From: Escherichia coli
Lineage (GTDB): Bacteria; Pseudomonadota; Gammaproteobacteria; Enterobacterales; Enterobacteriaceae
Strand: one strand, 5' to 3'
NCBI RefSeq assembly: GCF_003991155.1
Contig: NZ_CP031295.1
DNA: 64,000 bases
Below the pieces are notes generated by a model. That model was not told the origin of the DNA. It made no database searches and saw only the letters and a list, made by a program, of their open reading frames with translations. Each line of letters begins with the position of its first letter. Within the stretch, counting starts at the first letter, position 1. Shown piece by piece: positions 5,358-14,930 of the stretch. A program made the translations under genes and the position numbers.

Positions 5358-6533
5358 ATGTTCAGAATGAGACTCATGGAAACACTTAACCAGTGCATAA
5401 ACGCTGGTCATGAAATGACGAAGGCTATCGCCATTGCACAGTTTAATGATGACAGCCCGGAAGCGAGGAAAATCACCCGACGCTGGAGAATAGGTGAAGC
5501 AGCGGATTTAGTTGGAGTATCTTCTCAGGCTATCAGGGATGCCGAGAAAGCAGGCCGGCTACCGCACCCGGATATGGAAATACGAGGACGGGTTGAGCAA
5601 CGTGTTGGTTATACAATTGAACAAATTAATCATATGCGTGACGTGTTTGGTACGAGACTACGACGTGCTGAAGACGTATTTCCGCCGGTGATTGGAGTTG
5701 CTGCTCATAAAGGGGGCGTTTACAAAACCTCTGTTTCTGTTCATCTTGCTCAGGATCTGGCTCTGAAGGGATTACGTGTTCTGCTCGTGGAAGGTAACGA
5801 CCCCCAGGGAACAGCATCGATGTATCACGGCTGGGTGCCAGATCTTCATATTCATGCAGAGGATACTCTCCTTCCCTTCTATCTTGGGGAAAAGGACGAT
5901 GTCACTTATGCAATAAAGCCTACTTGCTGGCCTGGGCTTGACATTATTCCTTCCTGTTTGGCTCTGCACCGCATTGAAACTGAGCTAATGGGCAAATTTG
6001 ATGAAGGTAAATTGCCCACCGATCCACACCTGATGCTCCGACTGGCCATTGAAACCGTCGCTCATGACTATGATGTCATTGTCATTGACAGCGCGCCTAA
6101 CCTAGGTATCGGCACGATTAATGTTGTATGTGCTGCTGATGTGTTGATTGTCCCCACGCCTGCTGAGTTGTTCGACTACACTTCCGCTCTGCAGTTTTTC
6201 GATATGCTTCGTGATCTGCTCAAAAACGTAGATCTTAAAGGATTCGAGCCTGATGTACGTATTTTGCTTACCAAATACAGTAATAGTAATGGTTCTCAGT
6301 CCCCGTGGATGGAGGAGCAAATTCGGGACGCCTGGGGAAGCATGGTCCTAAAAAATGTTGTGCGTGAAACGGATGAAGTTGGTAAAGGTCAGATCCGGAT
6401 GAGAACTGTTTTTGAACAGGCTATTGATCAACGCTCTTCAACAGGTGCCTGGAGAAATGCCCTTTCTATTTGGGAACCTGTCTGCAATGAAATTTTCGAT
6501 CGTTTGATTAAACCACGCTGGGAGATTAGATAA
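5358..6533 (+). CDS. sopA: plasmid partition ATPase SopA (ParA family, F type)
   Basis: 391 aa ORF; deviant Walker A KGGVYKTS; matches F SopA as I remember it. Confidence 0.95.
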
Positions 6534-7504
6534 TGAAGCGTGCGCCTGTCATTCCAAAACATACGATTAAGACTCAACCGCTTGAAGATACTCCGTCATC
6601 GGCACCAGCTGCACCGATGGTGGATTCGTTAATTGCGCGCGTAGGAGCTATGGCTCGTGGCAATGCTATTACTTTGCCTGTATGTGGTAGGGACGTGAAA
6701 TTTACCCTTGAGGTGCTCCGGGGAGATAGTGTTGAGAAGACCTCTCGGGTATGGTCAGGTAATGAACGTGACCAGGAACTGCTTACCGAAGACGCCCTGG
6801 ATGATCTTATCCCTTCTTTTCTACTGACAGGTCAGCAGACACCAGCATTCGGTCGAAGAGTGTCTGGGGTCATAGAAATTGCCGATGGGAGCCGCCGTCG
6901 TAAAGCTGCTGCACTTACAGAAAGTGATTATCGAGTTCTGGTTGGTGAGCTGGATGATGAGCAGATGGCTGCATTGTCCAGATTGGGTAACGATTATAGG
7001 CCAACAAGTGCTTATGAACGTGGTCAGCGTTATGCAAGCCGATTGCAGAATGAATTTGCTGGAAATATTTCTGCGCTGGCTGATGCAGAAAATATTTCAC
7101 GTAAGATTATTACCCGCTGTATCAACACAGCTAAACTGCCTAAATCAGTTGTTGCTCTTTTTTCTCATCCCGGTGAACTATCTGCCCGGTCAGGTGATGC
7201 ACTTCAAAGAGCTTTTACAGATAAAGAAGAATTACTTAAGCAGCAGGCATCTAACCTTCACGAGCAGAAAAAAGCAGGAGTGATATTTGAAGCTGAAGAA
7301 GTCATCACTCTTTTAACGTCTGTGCTTAAAACGTCATCTGCCTCAAGAACTAGCTTAAGCTCACGACATCAGTTTGCTCCTGGAGCGACAGTGTTGTACA
7401 AGGGCGATAAAATGGTGTTAAACCTAGATAGATCTCGTATTCCAACTGAGTGTATAGAGAGAATTGAAGCCATTCTTAAGGAACTTGAAAAAGCGGCACT
7501 TTGA
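6533..7504 (+). CDS. sopB: plasmid partition protein SopB (ParB family, F type)
   Basis: 323 aa ORF overlapping the sopA stop; matches F SopB; followed by sopC repeats. Confidence 0.95.
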
Positions 7505-7583
7505 TGCGGCACGTTTTAGTCTACATTTATCTGTCTTTACTTAATTTCCTTTAGCACAGGCTAGAAAACATAACTAACTGGCC

Positions 7584-8100
7584 TGAATATTATATCTGGG
7601 ACCACGGTCCCAGTTGTATTGTCGGTCTGATAATCAGTCTGGGACCACGGTCCCACTCATATTGTCGGTCTGATAATCAGTCTGGGACCACGGTCCCACT
7701 CATATTGTCGGTCTGATTATCGGTCTGGGACCACGGGCCCACTCATATTGTTAGTCTGCTAATCAGTCTGGGACCGCGGTCCCACTCGTATTGTTGGTCT
7801 GCTAATCAGTCTGGGACCACGGTCCCACTCATATTGTCGGTCTGCTAATCAGTCTGGGACCACGGTCCCACTCATATTGTCGGTCTGCTAATCAGTCTGG
7901 GACCACGGTCCCACTCATATTGTCGGTCTGCTAATCAGTCTGGGACCACGGTCCCACTCATATTGTTGGTCTGATTATCGGTCTGCGACCACGGTCCCAC
8001 TCATATTGTTAGTCTGATAATCAGTCTGGGACCGCGGTCCCACTCGTATTGTTGGTCTGCTAATCAGTCTGGGACCACGGTCTCACTTGTATTGTCGATC
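7584..8100 (+). repeat. sopC: sopC centromere: 12 tandem 43-bp repeats
   Basis: 12 copies of a 43-bp unit each containing the palindrome TGGGACCACGGTCCCA, with a few point variants. Confidence 0.9.
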
Positions 8101-8499
8101 TGATTATCAGCGTGAGACTACGATTCCATTAATGCCTGCCAGTGAGTGTGTGGAACATATCTTGGCCAGTGGCTTGGTCTGTGATGTGCTGCGTATACCG
8201 GGTGAACCGCCCCGCCGCTTGTTTGACCGCTATATTCTGCGGGAGTTTTCTTGGAGGCACGGGATGAAATCCGCAGCATGGCGGATGCCCTGGCAAAAAT
8301 CCGGAAATGATGACGATGGCGGGGAAAATCCCCGCCTTTTTCCTGCCGGTCCCCGGACAGAGCACAAAGGAAGTCGCCGCCGGCTCCGCTTTACCCGGCC
8401 ATGCGGGGCATGGCCTTGTGGGGGTTCAGTTATGTGGACGTCGAGTCGTGTGCGGGCTGTGCCGTGCCTCCATCTTAGCCGGGCTGGCGTTGATGCAAG

Positions 8500-8860
8500 G
8501 GGCAACGCCGTTTCGCAAACCGCGCTTCACGTCGTTGCGGCGGGTCCCTGCCCGTTGTTCTGTCCGGTGCCATTCACCTGTTTAAGCCCCTGTCGCCGGG
8601 GGCTGATACAGCCACAACCGTCTCCGCCAGTCCAGGGGTGAAATGTACATCCCGCAAAACTTTTTGCCCAAAAGCAGGCAAAAACTTTTGCGGGATGTAC
8701 ATTTCACCCCCGGACAGTCGTTTCCGTCCGTGGCAGTGATGCCCCTTGCGGCGAAGGTTCTCAAAAAGGTGATGGTGAATACCGGAGGGAACAAAAGGCA
8801 GGTCCCCGCAAAACGTCAAAACCGCGGCTCCCGAAACTCAAAAGATGATGGGGGCTGAAA
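8500..8860 (+). promoter_or_regulatory. Frpo/ssi-like leading-region element, copy 1 (single-strand promoter/priming signal)
   Basis: ~360 bp highly structured non-coding DNA directly upstream of ssb, containing a 60-bp perfect palindrome (8643-8702); repeated at 12125-12478; F leading regions carry such ssDNA promoter elements. Confidence 0.55.
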
Positions 8861-8883
8861 ACATCAACAGAAGGAGGCACATC

Positions 8884-9423
8884 ATGGCAGTTCGTGGCAT
8901 TAACAAGGTCATTCTCGTAGGACGCCTGGGAAAAGATCCGGAAGTCCGTTACATCCCCAACGGGGGCGCAGTGGCAAACCTGCAGGTGGCCACATCAGAA
9001 AGCTGGCGTGACAAACAGACGGGGGAGATGCGGGAGCAGACAGAATGGCATCGTGTGGTGCTGTTCGGCAAGCTCGCGGAAGTGGCAGGTGAATATCTGC
9101 GCAAGGGCGCGCAGGTCTACATCGAAGGTCAGCTTCGCACCCGTAGCTGGGAGGATAACGGTATCACCCGTTACGTCACCGAAATTCTTGTTAAGACCAC
9201 GGGCACCATGCAGATGCTGGGACGTGCCGCAGGTGCTCAGACTCAGCCGGAAGAGGGGCAACAGTTCAGCGGTCAGTATCAGCCGGAACCACAGGCGGAG
9301 GCCGGTACGAAAAAAGGAGGCGCAAAAACGAAAGGCCGTGGACGTAAGGCCACGCAGCCGGAGTCGCAGCCGCAACCGCCGGAGAGTGACGATTACGGGT
9401 TTTCAGATGATATCCCGTTCTGA
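8884..9423 (+). CDS. ssb: plasmid single-stranded DNA-binding protein
   Basis: 179 aa from MAVRGINKV; OB-fold N-terminal region, Gly/Gln/Pro-rich linker, acidic C-terminus DDIPF; RBS AGGAGG. Confidence 0.9.
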
Positions 9424-9437
9424 ACGACTGACTGTGA

Positions 9438-9713
<276 letters not shown>

Positions 9714-9992
9714 GAGAGGTGCCCGACGCGCGAACGTCCGCCGCAGATTATCGCAGCCCTGAATAAGGCAGGGCTGTCCGGTGCCGCACGGGACGCGGAG
9801 AAGATGAAGAAAGGTGATGCGGCTGAACATGCAGAGCACCATATGAAAGACAACCGCTGGGTGCCTGGCTGGATGTGTGCACCACATCCACAGACGGATA
9901 CCACTGAACGCACCGATAACCTGGCTGATGCCGCCTGATAAACAACCACACCGCCCCGCCGGAGACGGGGCGGCAGCAAGGGAGATACCGTG

Positions 9993-10427
9993 ATGAAAAC
10001 TGAACTGACCCTGAATGTATTACAGACCATGAGCGCACAGGAATATGAAGATATCCGGGCAGCCGGAAGTGATGAACGTCGTGAGCTGACACACGCCGTG
10101 ATGCGGGAACTGGATGCGCCGGACAACTGGACGATGAACGGCGAGTACGGCAGCGAGTTTGGCGGATTTTTCCCCGTCCAGGTCCGTTTCACGCCTGCCC
10201 ACGAACGTTTCCACCTGGCGTTATGTTCACCGGGCGATGTCTCTCAGGTCTGGGTGCTGGTTCTGGTGAATGCCGGTGGTGAGCCGTTTGCGGTGGTTCA
10301 GGTACAGCGGCGGTTTGCACCGGAAGCCGTCAGCCATTCACTGGCACTGGCGGCGTCACTGGACGCGCAGGGGTACAGCGTCAGTGACATCATCCATATC
10401 CTGATGGCGGAAGGAGGTCAGGCATGA
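9993..10427 (+). CDS. psiB: PsiB, plasmid SOS inhibition protein (anti-RecA)
   Basis: 144 aa from [13 protein letters not shown]...; matches F/R100 PsiB. Confidence 0.9.
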
Positions 10428-11140
10428 GCGCACGTTCACAGGCACTGGTTCCTCTCAGCACAGAGCAACAGGCCGCATGGCGGGCGGTGGCGGAGACCGA
10501 AAAACGCCGCCATCAGGGTAACACGCTGGCTGAATATCCGTATGCGGGGGCGTTTTTCCGCTGTCTGAACGGAAGCCGCAGGATATCGCTGTCTGACCTG
10601 CGATTTTTCATGCCGTCCCTGACCGCAGAAGAACTGCACGGCAACCGTCTTCAGTGGCTGTATGCCATCGATGTGCTGATTGAAACACAGGGCGAGGTTG
10701 CCTCCTTCCCCTCCGGTGATGCAGCAGAGCGCTTGTTCCCGTCGGTGCGGTTTCGTGTCAGGGAACGCAGTCGCCATAAATCCGCGCTGGTCATGCAGAA
10801 GTACAGCCGCCAGCAGGCGAGGGAGGCAGAGCAGAAAGCCCGTGCGTACCAGGCGCTGGTCGCTCAGGCTGAAATCGAACTGGCATTCCATTCGCCGGAA
10901 ACAGTCGGAAGCTGGCATGCACGCTGGAGTGACCGGGTGGCAGAGCATGACCTGGAAACCCTGTTCTGGCAGTGGGGCGAGCGTTTTCCGTCACTGGCCG
11001 GAATGGAACGCTGGCAGTGGCAGGATATGCCATTCTGGCAGGTCATCGCAGAGGCTGGTATGGCGGCAAGGGTGGTCGGTCATGCTGTTCGTGAGATGGA
11101 GCGGTGGATGGTGCCGAACAAACTCCGGGAGGCAGCGTGA
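10424..11140 (+). CDS. psiA: PsiA, plasmid SOS inhibition protein A
   Basis: 238 aa ORF overlapping the psiB stop; matches F PsiA. Confidence 0.9.
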
Positions 11141-11334
11141 TGCGGCAACAATCACACGGATTTCCCGTGAACGGTCTGAATGAGCGGATTATTTTCAGGG
11201 AAAGTGAGTGTGGTCAGCGTGCAGGTATATGGGCTATGATGTGCCCGGCGCTTGAGGCTTTCTGCCTCATGACGTGAAGGTGGTTTGTTGCCGTGTTGTG
11301 TGGCAGAAAGAAGATAGCCCCGTAGTAAGTTAAT

Positions 11335-11400
11335 TTTCATTAACCACCACGAGGCATCCCTATGTCTAGTCCACATCAGGATAGCCTCTTACCGCGCTTT
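11335..11400 (-). ncRNA. sok: putative Sok/FlmB antisense RNA of the hok/mok module
   Basis: inferred by position: antisense to the mok start/hok leader; exact ends not determined. Confidence 0.35.
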
Positions 11401-11574
11401 GCGCAAGGAGAAGAAGGCCATGAAACTACCACGAAGTTCCCTTGTCTGGTGTGTGTTGATCGTGTGTCTCACACTGTTGATATTCACTTATCTGACACGA
11501 AAATCGCTGTGCGAGATTCGTTACAGAGACGGACACAGGGAGGTGGCGGCTTTCATGGCTTACGAATCCGGTAA
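11362..11574 (+). CDS. mok: Mok (modulation of killing), overlapping reading frame of the hok module
   Basis: 70 aa ORF in a different frame, covering almost all of hok. Confidence 0.7.
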
Positions 11575-11578
11575 GTAG
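11420..11578 (+). CDS. hok: Hok/FlmA family type I toxin (52 aa)
   Basis: [52 protein letters not shown]: single transmembrane helix plus conserved C-terminus of Hok; below the ORF-track size cut-off, found by reading the sequence. Confidence 0.85.
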
Positions 11579-11585
11579 CAACCTG

Positions 11586-11610
11586 GAGGCGGGCGCAGGC
11601 CCGCCTTTTC
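11586..11610 (+). terminator. rho-independent terminator after hok
   Basis: GC hairpin ggcgggcgcaggcccgcc followed by TTTT. Confidence 0.6.
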
Positions 11611-12124
11611 AGGACTGATGCTGGTCTGACTACTGAAGCGCCTTTATAAAGGGGCTGCTGGTTCGCCGGTAGCCCCTTTCTCCTTGCTGATGTTGTACGG
11701 GCATGAACAACCTGACTTCAGGAAGGTCGTTTCCCTTCAGGAACGGGGATGAACGCGCGCCTGCGGCGCCCGTTCTTTTCCCCCGCCTTCTCTGGTTATG
11801 GCCTGTCAGAAATCACATCACCTTCCCTGTGATTATTCTCTTTTTCTTCCTGCTCTGATTCTGACTACTGCAGTGTTGTCCTGTCTGCCGGGCGTACCTT
11901 CGGCTCCCGGCTGCCTGGCGGCATCCGGTCGTCAGGCCCGACTCCGACAGGCAGCTGCTGGCGCACCTGCCAGTCTCCGCCGAACCCGCTGGCGCGGTTT
12001 CGGGCTGTCGCTACGGTCCGATGCGTGAAAACCCCTGGCTTGCAGCGACCGTTCCGGTCGCGCCGCCTCTGTCGCGCCGTGACCTGCGCTCCCGGCATCC
12101 CGGCAAAAGGCGCCGGGATGTAAG

Positions 12125-12478
12125 GCGCAACGCCGTTTCGCAAACCGCGCTTCACGTCGTTGCGGCGGGTCCCTGCCCGTTGTTGTGTCCGGTGCCATTC
12201 ACCAGTTTAAGCCCCTGTCGCCGGGGGCATAGACAGCCACAACCGTCTCCGCCAGTCCAGGGGTGAAATGCACATCCCGCAAAACTTTTTGCCCAGAAGC
12301 AGGCAAAAACTTTTGCGGTCTGCCCCCGGACAGTCGTTTCCGGCCGTGGCAGTGATGCCCCATGCGGCGAAGGTTCTCAAACAGGTGATGGTGAATACCG
12401 GAGGGAACAAAAGGCAGGTCCCCGCAAAACGTCAAAACCGCGGCTCCCGAAACTCAACAGATGATGGGGGCTGAAAAC
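12125..12478 (+). promoter_or_regulatory. Frpo/ssi-like leading-region element, copy 2
   Basis: ~90% identical direct repeat of 8500-8860, directly upstream of the 95-aa ORF; lacks ~20 bp of the distal palindrome arm. Confidence 0.55.
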
Positions 12479-12498
12479 CAGAGAGAGGAGAAAGCAGG

Positions 12499-12786
12499 AT
12501 GAGTACCCGAAATATCCACGTTAACACCGCGTCGTACACGCTTCTTGTTGCCGGGAAGAAAAAAAACACCGGGGAAGAGTGGGACGTCCTGGAATTCAGC
12601 AGCCTGACTGAGCTGAAAAAATATCGCAAAAGCCACCCGGAAAAGATGGCCTTCAGTTATAGCTACGCGCTCAGTCAGGGTGTGGATAAGCAGTTCCGCC
12701 ATATCAACATTGCGGAAGCCGATCACTTCAAACAGTTCCTGCGTCAGATTAAGCGTGCCGGCCTCGATATCCGGGCGATCTGCTGA
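12499..12786 (+). CDS. hypothetical leading-region protein (95 aa)
   Basis: ORF with RBS GGAGAGGAG, directly downstream of the second Frpo-like element; no motif recognised. Confidence 0.5.
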   Translation: MSTRNIHVNTASYTLLVAGKKKNTGEEWDVLEFSSLTELKKYRKSHPEKMAFSYSYALSQGVDKQFRHINIAEADHFKQFLRQIKRAGLDIRAIC

Positions 12787-12903
12787 CCGGATGTGATGAA
12801 TATCCCTCCTGATTGTTGCAATCTTGTTAATGGAGATCGGGGGGATGATATTAAGCGGAAAAATTTTTTATTAAATTTATTCTTTCATAAAGGAGTAGCT
12901 GTT

Positions 12904-13725
12904 ATGCGATTAGCTTCCCGTTTTGGTCGGTATAATTCCATCCGCCGTGAACGTCCTTTAACGGATGATGAATTAATGCAGTTCGTGCCTTCGGTATTTT
13001 CCGGTGATAAACATGAGTCCCGGAGTGAACGTTATACGTATATTCCAACAATCAATATCATCAATAAGTTACGTGATGAAGGTTTCCAGCCATTCTTTGC
13101 CTGTCAGAGTCGGATTCGTGATTTGGGACGTCGCGAATACAGTAAACATATGTTACGTCTTCGCAGGGAAGGGCATATTAACGGACAGGAAGTTCCTGAA
13201 ATTATCCTGCTTAATTCACATGATGGTTCATCCAGTTATCAGATGATCCCCGGAATTTTTCGTTTTGTCTGCACAAATGGCCTGGTGTGCGGAAATAATT
13301 TTGGCGAAATCCGCGTTCCACATAAAGGTGATATTGTCGGGCAGGTTATCGAGGGAGCGTATGAAGTGCTCGGTGTCTTTGATAAGGTCACTGATAATAT
13401 GGAGGCGATGAAAGAAATTCATCTTAACAGTGACGAGCAACATTTATTTGGCAGAGCTGCACTGATGGTCAGGTATGAAGATGAAAATAAAACGCCAGTG
13501 ACACCTGAACAGATAATTACTCCCCGTCGTCGGGAAGACAAACAGAACGATCTCTGGACAACCTGGCAGCGGGTTCAGGAGAATATGATAAAAGGTGGAT
13601 TATCGGGGCGAAGTGCCTCCGGGAAAAATACCAGGACAAGAGCCATTACAGGTATTGATGGTGATATAAGAATCAACAAGGCGTTATGGGTGATTGCCGA
13701 ACAGTTCAGAAAGTGGAAGTCATGA
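12904..13725 (+). CDS. orf273-like leading-region protein
   Basis: 273 aa from MRLASRFGRY... with RBS AAAGGAG; size and position match F orf273; the ORF-track 5' extension rejected for lack of RBS. Confidence 0.7.
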   Translation: MRLASRFGRYNSIRRERPLTDDELMQFVPSVFSGDKHESRSERYTYIPTINIINKLRDEGFQPFFACQSRIRDLGRREYSKHMLRLRREGHINGQEVPEIILLNSHDGSSSYQMIPGIFRFVCTNGLVCGNNFGEIRVPHKGDIVGQVIEGAYEVLGVFDKVTDNMEAMKEIHLNSDEQHLFGRAALMVRYEDENKTPVTPEQIITPRRREDKQNDLWTTWQRVQENMIKGGLSGRSASGKNTRTRAITGIDGDIRINKALWVIAEQFRKWKS

Positions 13726-13778
13726 TAATATAAGTAAAGCCCCGAAAAAATTTTCGGGGCTTTACTTATATTATCATT
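13723..13778. terminator. long palindromic hairpin between convergent orf273 and orf169 (bidirectional terminator)
   Basis: perfect inverted repeat atgataatataagtaaagccccgaaaa / ttttcggggctttacttatattatcat. Confidence 0.6.
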
Positions 13779-14021
13779 TTTCGGCATTGCTGTGTCGTCT
13801 GATATACCTCAATTTCATCAACCGGATTTCCGGTTGTCTGTAAATATTGTGCCCGCGAAAAATGGTCTGGCAGGAGGCTGCACAGTTACCGGGTATATAT
13901 AAGATGGGTTCCCGCTTCGCGGGGCTTCGGCCAGTCAGTATTGTCACTCATATGATATTTTTGTGTGTGGCCTTCCATGCCGCTTTTGCGGCATAACCGG
14001 TATCTGACAATGTCTGTAAGA

Positions 14022-14531
14022 TTAATTGTTCTGCACGCTGTTAATTTCCGGAAGTGATTTCTTCGTGGCCGGAAGTCGGATACCTTTACTGCTTTTTATC
14101 CCAGTATAAATCCGGTAAACATCTGATGCGTAGGCAAGACGTCTCTGGTTCTGGCGTTCGGTTTTCCTGAATCCGGCATTGTATGCACCAACGGCCTCCC
14201 AGGTGACGCCCCATTTTTTAAATGCTATTGCCAGATAATAAGCACCGGTATAAATGTTCATGCAGGGATCTGTTGTCAGATGTTCTGGCTTAATTCCGTA
14301 GCGGGCCAGTTCGTTAAAATGCTGGGAATCTACCTGCATCAGTCCGCTGCCATATCCCGTTACCGGATTAATACCGATGGCATTAACCCGGTAACGGGAT
14401 TCTTGCCATGATATTGCTCTCAGTAAATCAGGATCTATTTTGTAATCCCGGCCTGCAAGATCAAAGCAATCAGTGGCCTGGCAGATCTCATTTATAAACA
14501 TCAGGCAGATGGCTAACATCCATTTTTTCAT
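14022..14531 (-). CDS. lytic transglycosylase (F orf169 / gene X type)
   Basis: 169 aa from [10 protein letters not shown]; signal peptide and Slt-like catalytic region (...[13 protein letters not shown]...GLMQV...); adjacent to oriT as in F. Confidence 0.85.
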
Positions 14532-14589: not shown

Positions 14590-14930
14590 AACAGGTTGGT
14601 GGTTCTCACCACCAAAAGCACCACACCCCACGCAAAAACAAGTTTTTGCTGATTTTTCTTTATAAATAGAGAGTTATGACAAATTAGTTCTTCTTGCTCT
14701 CTTTGTGATATTTAAAAAAGCGGTGTTGGCGCAGCTACAACACCGCGCCGACACCGCTTTTTAGGGGTGGTACTGACTATTTTCATAAAAAACATCATCT
14801 TATATTAGGGGTGCTGCTAGCGGCGCGGTGTGTTTTTTTACAGGACGCCCCTGGGGGCGCTGCTAGCGGTGCGTCCCTGTTTGCATTATGAATTTTAGTG
14901 TTTCGAAATTAACTTTATTTTATGTTCAAA
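14590..14930. other. oriT: origin of transfer oriT (F type), nick site and TraY/TraM/IHF binding region
   Basis: F-type nick motif as reverse complement (ggtggttctcaccaccaaaagcaccacaccccacgc), placing nic on the minus strand near 14622/14623; AT-rich repeats up to traM; nick strand and direction agree with the leading region at lower coordinates. Confidence 0.8.

Follow-up and report, generated by a model that had tools for sequence, protein, structure and literature searches.

The Frpo (ssiD) element of plasmid F was reportedly described by Masai and Arai in 1997, and the related ssi1-3/Frpo1-3 elements of ColIb-P9 are said to go back to Bates (1999) and Nasim (2004); the mutations that perfect quasipalindromes, a class characterised by dependence on replication, 3' exonucleases and replication-stalling drugs, were reportedly studied by Ripley (1982) and by the Lovett laboratory (thyA, lacZ). 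[quoted passage not shown] The elements of F that were named Frpo1 and Frpo2 by Couturier et al. 2023 (PMC9849209) are the class 1 ssDNA promoters ssp1a and ssp1b of PMC12672017 and bioRxiv 10.64898/2026.01.09.698686. Frpo drives the genes that a resistance plasmid expresses first on entering a new cell, and the rules that relate its structure to its function are only now emerging. Hallmarks of the class 1 promoters are -35 and -10 boxes reconstituted in the stem, and transcription and primer synthesis by the sigma-70 holoenzyme exclusively on the single-stranded form. In quasipalindrome template switching, a nascent strand folds back, copies the other arm of an imperfect inverted repeat and returns, thereby perfecting the repeat (PMC7202029).

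The 64-kb stretch of DNA analysed here (hereafter the window) carries two Frpo-type elements as direct repeats (Table 1), both of which had been taken for leading-region promoters in a preliminary description of the sequence, an assignment with which their homology to F ssiD/Frpo1 and their position in the leading region agree. Identity to F ssiD (D90178), the sequence on which the definition of Frpo is based, is 95.7% for copy 1 and 96.6% for copy 2; to F Frpo1 (NC_002483) it is 90.5% and 96.4%, respectively. By the naming of Couturier et al., the place of copy 1 is that of Frpo2 (ssb) and the place of copy 2 that of Frpo1 (ygeA). The gene order, sopABC-Frpo-ssb-psiB-psiA-hok/sok-Frpo-ygeA-ygeB-SLT-oriT-traM, is that of an F-like plasmid, and ssb, psiB, psiA, ygeA and ygeB are all encoded on the plus strand, downstream of the two Frpo copies. 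The oriT region contains GTGGGGTGTGGTGCTTTTGG, which we take to be the F nic sequence, on the minus strand, so that the minus strand is the transferred (T) strand and serves as template for the leading genes. Judged by homology, the palindrome at the centre of this analysis is the tip of a Frpo hairpin, a class 1 ssDNA promoter of F-like and IncI1 leading regions. No Rfam family matched the Frpo element, sok being the only family found nearby.

Table 1. Coordinates of the two Frpo copies, their tips and neighbouring features in the window
Feature	Position	Strand	Sequence or remark
Frpo copy 1	8492..8862	-	direct repeat of copy 2; ssb-proximal, class 1 ssDNA promoter (Frpo2/ssp1b position)
Left (proximal) tip arm, copy 1	8635..8668		ggggtgaaatgtacatcccgcaaaaCtttttgcc; unchanged between long and short forms (alignment)
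Left-arm segment, copy 1	8639..8651		tgaaatgtacatc; unpaired in canonical Frpo (3' side, T-strand internal loop)
Tip loop, copy 1	8669..8676		caaaagca, 8 nt
Right (distal) tip arm, copy 1	8677..8710		ggcaaaaaCttttgcgggatgtacatttcacccc
13-nt tract read as derived, copy 1	8694..8706		GATGTACATTTCA; from alignment to copy 2 and to L004, same locus
Putative promoter, T-strand 5' arm	8736..8764	-	weighted hexamer scan and ladder
ssb	8885-9423	+	downstream of Frpo copy 1
sok RNA	11246-11422		hok/sok locus between psiA and copy 2
Frpo copy 2	12117..12478	-	ygeA/ygeB-proximal, canonical short tip; homologous to Frpo1/ssiD
Canonical asymmetric tip, copy 2	12260..12327		left arm 12260-12293; loop 12294-12301
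Distal side of tip, copy 2			inner right arm 12302-12318; TCTG 12319-12322; CCCCC 12323-12327
95-aa ORF, ygeA type	12499-12786	+	downstream of copy 2
DUF932-type ORF, ygeB type	12793-13725	+	downstream of copy 2
oriT nic site	14612..14631	-	GTGGGGTGTGGTGCTTTTGG; exact match, 0 expected by chance

Several features of the surroundings deserve mention in their own right. The oriT, between the gene for the SLT transglycosylase and traM, also has an 18-nt inverted repeat (14715-14762), and twelve tandem 43-bp sopC repeats (7509-8239) end ~250 bp upstream of Frpo copy 1, so the several kb of leading genes that lie between sop and ssb in F (antirestriction, DUF1380, methylase) are missing here; the same short sopC-Frpo arrangement was found in 216 PLSDB records. 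Right after the DUF932 (ygeB-type) ORF, two perfectly complementary 27-nt arms set 2 nt apart (ATGATAATATAAGTAAAGCCCCGAAAA / TTTTCGGGGCTTTACTTATATTATCAT, 13722-13777) make up the longest perfect inverted repeat of the window.

The longest inverted repeat of the window overall is the tip palindrome of copy 1, which comprises 76 nt (8635-8710), with two 34-nt arms, an 8-nt loop and a single C:C mismatch at 8660/8685, the arms being complementary at 33 of 34 positions. The preliminary description had reported a perfect 60-bp palindrome at 8643-8702; the sequence there is as quoted, but the palindrome is near-perfect because of the C:C mismatch, and it extends to 76 nt. Among ~120 sampled copies (loci L008-L087), ~80% have the mismatch in the inner tip stem and the remaining ~20% are perfectly paired at this site through a change in either arm, a smaller-scale instance of the same arm-to-arm correction that we describe below for the outer part of the tip. 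Two versions of the tip loop, caaaagca and cagaagca, occur among plasmids, and in L003 (CP124989.1, ~5990-6030) the whole tip centre, loop and inner stem, is inverted (TGCTTTTG instead of CAAAAGCA); this plasmid also has a group II intron inserted between Frpo and ssb. A 45-nt class that was picked up by the anchor regex lies inside a ParB-like gene and is unrelated to Frpo tips.

Pairwise alignment revealed that copies 1 and 2 are 96-97% identical outside the tip and that their sole complex difference is the presence of the 13-nt tract GATGTACATTTCA in copy 1 versus the 4-nt TCTG in copy 2, a net difference of 9 bp, since the spacing of the repeats is 3625 versus 3616 on either side of the tip. 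Read as its reverse complement, the tract matches left-arm positions 8639-8651 exactly. In copy 2 more than half of the distal arm survives, since its inner 17 bp are intact and the outer CCCC clamp is in place. The alignment bore out the earlier observation that the distal arm of the tip hairpin is not the same in the two copies, whereas the loss of ~20 bp that had been estimated for copy 2 shrinks to the net 9 bp, and the change itself is a 13-for-4 replacement rather than a clean deletion.

Comparison with other plasmids established which of the two tips is the canonical one. The tip of F Frpo1 has exactly the TTTTGCGGTCTGCCCCCGGAC of copy 2, and the string ttttgcggtctgcccccggac is identical between the copy 2 tip and F Frpo1. 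A short, asymmetric tip is also present in F Frpo2, in ColIb-P9 Frpo1-3 and in Salmonella copies, which differ in sequence and have the architecture in common, the asymmetric tip loop being conserved from IncF to IncI1. Moreover, the closest plasmid, NZ_AP027785.1 (L004; 99.1% identical over 8.3 kb), carries a short tip at the copy 1 locus; it is identical to the window from 6500 to 8406, with one substitution at 8407. The tip of copy 2, which the preliminary description had considered half-deleted, is thus the canonical form, as the same string in F Frpo1, the same locus in L004 and the surveys below indicate, and these sequence comparisons argue that the long tip of copy 1 is a derived 9-bp gain that perfects the palindrome, copy 2 representing the ancestral, undamaged state.

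Surveys across F-like plasmids, which had been envisaged as a check on whether a deletion is conserved, instead revealed the short, ancestral-type tip of copy 2 to be near-universal and the long form to be rare. As megablast missed long forms with SNPs every 20-27 nt, the surveys were redone with blastn; many apparent megablast matches were the palindrome aligned to the left arm across strands (L002, L003). A 57-nt short-form probe was fully covered in 2720 PLSDB records. The ungapped long form occurred in two of 3332 matching PLSDB records (NZ_AP022106.1 and CP088367.1), the other full-length PLSDB matches listed all being the 87-nt short form, and in two of 2382 matching E. coli complete genomes (NZ_AP022106.1 and NZ_CP158184.1), with the short tip present in >99.9% of matching complete plasmid records. 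Metagenome contigs gave 0 matches to the exact long-form pattern, versus at least 120 to the short-form pattern. Exact-sequence look-up of the ORF that spans the tip returned 18 distinct sequences on ~50 contigs for the long form and 638 sequences on thousands of contigs for the short form, several of the latter on at least 900 contigs each. Individual long alleles are found on up to 10 contigs, which argues against strong counter-selection, and we saw no enrichment of the long form by host or source. The window's own allele has its counterpart in AZR91848.1, AZR91947.1 and WP_097734363.1. In the literature searched, we found no description of the long-tip polymorphism.

We also searched with a synthetic symmetric short tip for the reverse correction, i.e. 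loss of the 13-nt bulge, and found none, an asymmetry that the mutation model alone leaves unexplained. The only near match to this probe, L007 (NZ_CP095625.1), was set aside as an assembly with homopolymer errors: several homopolymers in its Frpo tip (400-500) have lost a single base, and the record resembles a long-read assembly that was left uncorrected, a type of record that can mimic structural hairpin variants.

To trace the origin of the long form, we compared ten long forms (the window, L001, L005 and L128-L134). In all ten, the right-arm tract is the exact reverse complement of the copy's own left arm, and the right-arm ATGT[A/G]CAT pairs with the copy's own left-arm ATG[T/C]ACAT: three carry ATGTACAT on both arms, and the other seven have ATGCACAT on the left and ATGTGCAT on the right. 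An extra left-arm SNP in L128 (CGCCAAAC) is mirrored in its right arm (GTTTGGCG). The outer end of the tract reads CCCC-C in the window and CCCC-T in L001 and L133, where the next base is paired as well, and L131 pairs this same base through a left-arm change instead; similarly, the inner C:C mismatch is repaired via the right arm in L132 and via the left arm in L133 and L134. The long forms comprise eight nucleotide haplotypes and affect the ssb-proximal as well as the ygeA-proximal locus; for each long haplotype there is an abundant short one that is the same apart from the 13-for-4 replacement. The imperfect precursor thus exists, as the short form at the same locus in NZ_AP027785.1 and in thousands of plasmids. 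The occurrence of both T/A and C/G arm pairs among long forms implies at least two independent origins, and there were probably more. Own-arm matching, variable ends and occurrence at both loci together bear the classical mark of quasipalindrome mutation by recurrent template switching.

As DNA was synthesised across the tip, the nascent plus strand would have folded back after ...TTTTGCGG and copied its own left arm, with the segment tgaaatgtacatc (8639-8651) as the template of the tract at 8694-8706, adding GATGTACATTTCA-CCCC before it rejoined the proper template. The outcome at copy 1 would be the replacement of TCTG by 13 nt, with a net gain of 9 bp and closure of the internal loop. We consider it very probable that the tip of copy 1 is a Frpo hairpin tip whose loop was closed by such a template-switch mutation and that it is derived, with copy 2 ancestral.

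Relative to NZ_AP027785.1, the window shows a ~2.5% divergent patch at 8671-10712 (ssb-psiB-psiA) between near-identical flanks (6500-8407 and 10713-14075). No PLSDB plasmid exceeded 97.6% identity to this 2-kb patch over its full length, and from its pattern of divergence the patch looks like a recombination mosaic. Its left edge (8671) falls inside the Frpo tip, so the long tip could have come into this plasmid by recombination rather than having arisen in this lineage.

DNA folding predicts a pronounced difference between the two copies. The minus-strand segment 8480-8880 (401 nt, copy 1) folds at -126.6 kcal/mol (z = -12.4), none of 100 shuffles folding as well, and the copy 2 minus strand folds at -110.4 kcal/mol (z = -8.05); each copy is predicted to form a single long imperfect hairpin of ~330-370 nt. 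The canonical tip consists of a 17-bp A/T-rich hairpin, an asymmetric internal loop (13 nt on the 3' side versus 4 nt on the 5' side) and a GGGG/CCCC clamp, and in the ladder diagram of the short form the left-arm TGAAATGYACATC is unpaired, whereas the same segment is fully paired in copy 1. Folds of eight canonical tips each left 9-10 nt unpaired on the 3' side. The asymmetric loop before the clamp (9-14 nt, 3' side), a Frpo feature as defined in this analysis rather than by a published criterion, is present in copy 2 and in these eight canonical tips and absent in copy 1, which makes copy 1 a variant member of the Frpo family. In isogenic fold comparisons, exchanging the short for the long tip changed the energy of the full hairpin from -105.5 to -126.6 kcal/mol and that of the tip alone from -28.4 to -49.5 kcal/mol, so that loop closure is predicted to add ~21 kcal/mol to hairpin stability. 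The tips of F Frpo2, ColIb-P9 Frpo1-3 and two Salmonella copies range from -15 to -29 kcal/mol, versus -49.5 kcal/mol for copy 1.

A stock consensus promoter scan of 8400-8900 returned 0 sites, and the promoter assignment therefore rests on our own weighted hexamer scan. The candidate boxes are a -35 TTGAGA (8764-8759) and, after a 17-nt spacer, a weak -10 CATCAC (8741-8736) that would lie in an internal loop. This candidate promoter faces the tip, with a putative start near 8615 that would place the palindrome ~20 nt into the transcript. In the weighted scan TTGAGA-17 nt-CATCAC(T) ranked first in F ssiD and only fifth in copy 1; TTGAGA is also found in Serratia and insect-metagenome Frpo' sequences. 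Two other candidates were rejected: TTGACG-17-TTTTGT near the hairpin base, with a weak box, not conserved in ColIb-P9 and outside the conserved core, and TGGGCA-17-TACATT, with a bulge as pre-melted -10, which has a weak box and is not conserved in ColIb-P9. The 1991 ssiD sequence D90178 (supplement of PMC11541004) departs from the window and from the complete F sequence NC_002483 (L006), with GGGGCATACTGCC in place of their GGGGCATCACTGCC; this difference turns a good-looking -10 CATACT into the weaker CATCAC/ATCACT and may bear on how published promoter boxes are understood.

An ORF of 71 aa in copy 1 (8643-8858) and 68 aa in copy 2 (12268-12474) has its ATG in the hairpin bulge and runs through the Frpo arm, the 9-bp length change keeping it in frame. 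Many records carry it with the PGAP label 'single-stranded DNA-binding protein' or 'hypothetical protein'. It had no match in Pfam or NCBIfam, and the equivalent frame of F Frpo2 ends after 12 codons, so we rejected a coding role as unlikely, and the label 'single-stranded DNA-binding protein' across Frpo probably marks no gene.

The reverse polarity, in which the perfect palindrome came first and a deletion cost copy 2 the outer half of its distal arm, was the reading of the preliminary description, and it draws on the fact that the copies differ only at the distal arm, for which a deletion is the simplest description of the pairwise alignment. It is hardly credible now that the short tip is known from F Frpo1, F Frpo2, ColIb-P9 Frpo1-3 and the Salmonella copies, from the closest relative at the copy 1 locus itself and from >99.9% of matching plasmid records, and that the exchange of 13 nt for 4 nt is no clean deletion. 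An even smaller chance, practically nil, remains for a sequencing or assembly artefact at this hairpin-forming site: palindromes can yield chimeric reads, and L007 does carry homopolymer errors in the region, but the precise 13-nt tract recurs on ~50 contigs that stem from many projects, complete Japanese, Korean and Chinese genomes among them, and always matches the local left-arm allele. A single origin of the long tip, followed by spread through homologous recombination or gene conversion between Frpo copies, is a more serious contender, albeit an unlikely one. The stretch in which the window departs from its closest relative extends from 8671, within the tip, to 10712, Frpo copies are 92-97% identical repeats in thousands of plasmids, and the exact long allele of the window is also found in a different gene context (L129, with yfjB). 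Yet the arm pairs differ among long forms (T/A and C/G, with CC/GG in L128), as do the outer ends, both loci are affected, and every long form has its match among the common short haplotypes; had there been just one origin, the two arms would later have had to change in concert, and such paired compensatory changes are template-switch events in their own right. Recombinational import into the plasmid of the window is possible and would leave the polarity unchanged.

Selection for the perfected tip, with a stabler hairpin that resists SSB and helicases, stalls complementary-strand synthesis and prolongs expression of ssb and psiB, is very unlikely in our estimation. The predicted gain of ~21 kcal/mol would suit such a role, the ssp2 stem offers an analogy in that it stalls conversion and raises PsiB expression (bioRxiv 10.64898/2026.01.09.698686), and long alleles recur and persist on up to 10 contigs each. 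Against this, the long form is rare in every survey and shows no visible enrichment by host or source, and conservation of the loop from IncF to IncI1 argues that the loop is favoured, not its closure. Since the long form is rare and the loop deeply conserved, the long tip that we attribute to template switching would seem near-neutral or mildly costly rather than a designed difference between the two promoters.

Once the T-strand enters the recipient, each Frpo region would fold into one hairpin, from which RNA polymerase would transcribe ssb-psiB (copy 1) and ygeA-ygeB (copy 2); the hairpin presumably forms in vivo. Polymerase and replisome would need to open a much stabler tip in copy 1, and it is possible, given the predicted energies, that strength or priming activity is unequal between the two promoters, as the preliminary description had proposed. 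The candidate hexamers would lie ~25-50 nt from the tip, so the variant may be expected to stay functional, and hexamers untouched by the long tip fit the survival of long alleles in conjugative plasmids. By analogy with ssp2, stalling at the long tip is conceivable. Loop closure might further delay UvrD-dependent ss-to-ds conversion and thereby lengthen or strengthen zygotic expression of ssb and psiB, recurrent switching then acting as a reversible tuning knob, a scenario drawn from the same analogy that we regard as quite improbable; if true, template switching at the tip would set how long a single-strand promoter stays active. Loop-closed alleles arise repeatedly in nature and survive at low frequency, and they constitute ready-made isogenic variants with which to address the role of the loop, hairpin stability versus promoter lifetime, and the hairpin in vivo during DNA synthesis. 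For the window, the result is a known element with a rare polymorphism: a minor new natural variant of modest interest that provides an experimental handle.

Compared with the Frpo/ssiD elements of F, both copies of the window have 86-97% identity, the same positions upstream of ssb and ygeA, a T-strand template and a long imperfect hairpin. Copy 1 differs from F Frpo in that it is without the 13-versus-4-nt loop and has as its tip a near-perfect stem of 34 bp, for which ~21 kcal/mol of extra stability is predicted, and the ssb-proximal copy of the window bears a Frpo1-type tip instead of that of F Frpo2. With ssi1-3/Frpo1-3 of ColIb-P9 (IncI1) and with pESBL, the window shares the A/T-rich hairpin, the asymmetric loop, the GGGG/CCCC clamp and the core motifs, whereas the arms of ColIb-P9 Frpo1-3 are far more divergent and none of the three has a perfected tip. 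The class 2 promoter ssp2 of F has no sequence similarity to the element, and the replication roadblock is a feature of ssp2; we know of no report of roadblock activity for Frpo/ssp1 elements. Like Frpo, ssp2 is a hairpin promoter of the leading region, and the stability of its stem matters for ss-to-ds conversion (bioRxiv 10.64898/2026.01.09.698686). As in the quasipalindrome mutations of the E. coli thyA hotspot and of lacZ reporters, a single complex change perfects an imperfect repeat here, introduces bases that are reverse-complementary to the opposite arm and has arisen independently more than once; whereas the known cases are hotspots of loss- or gain-of-function in genes, here the change is a natural polymorphism in structured regulatory DNA of a plasmid.
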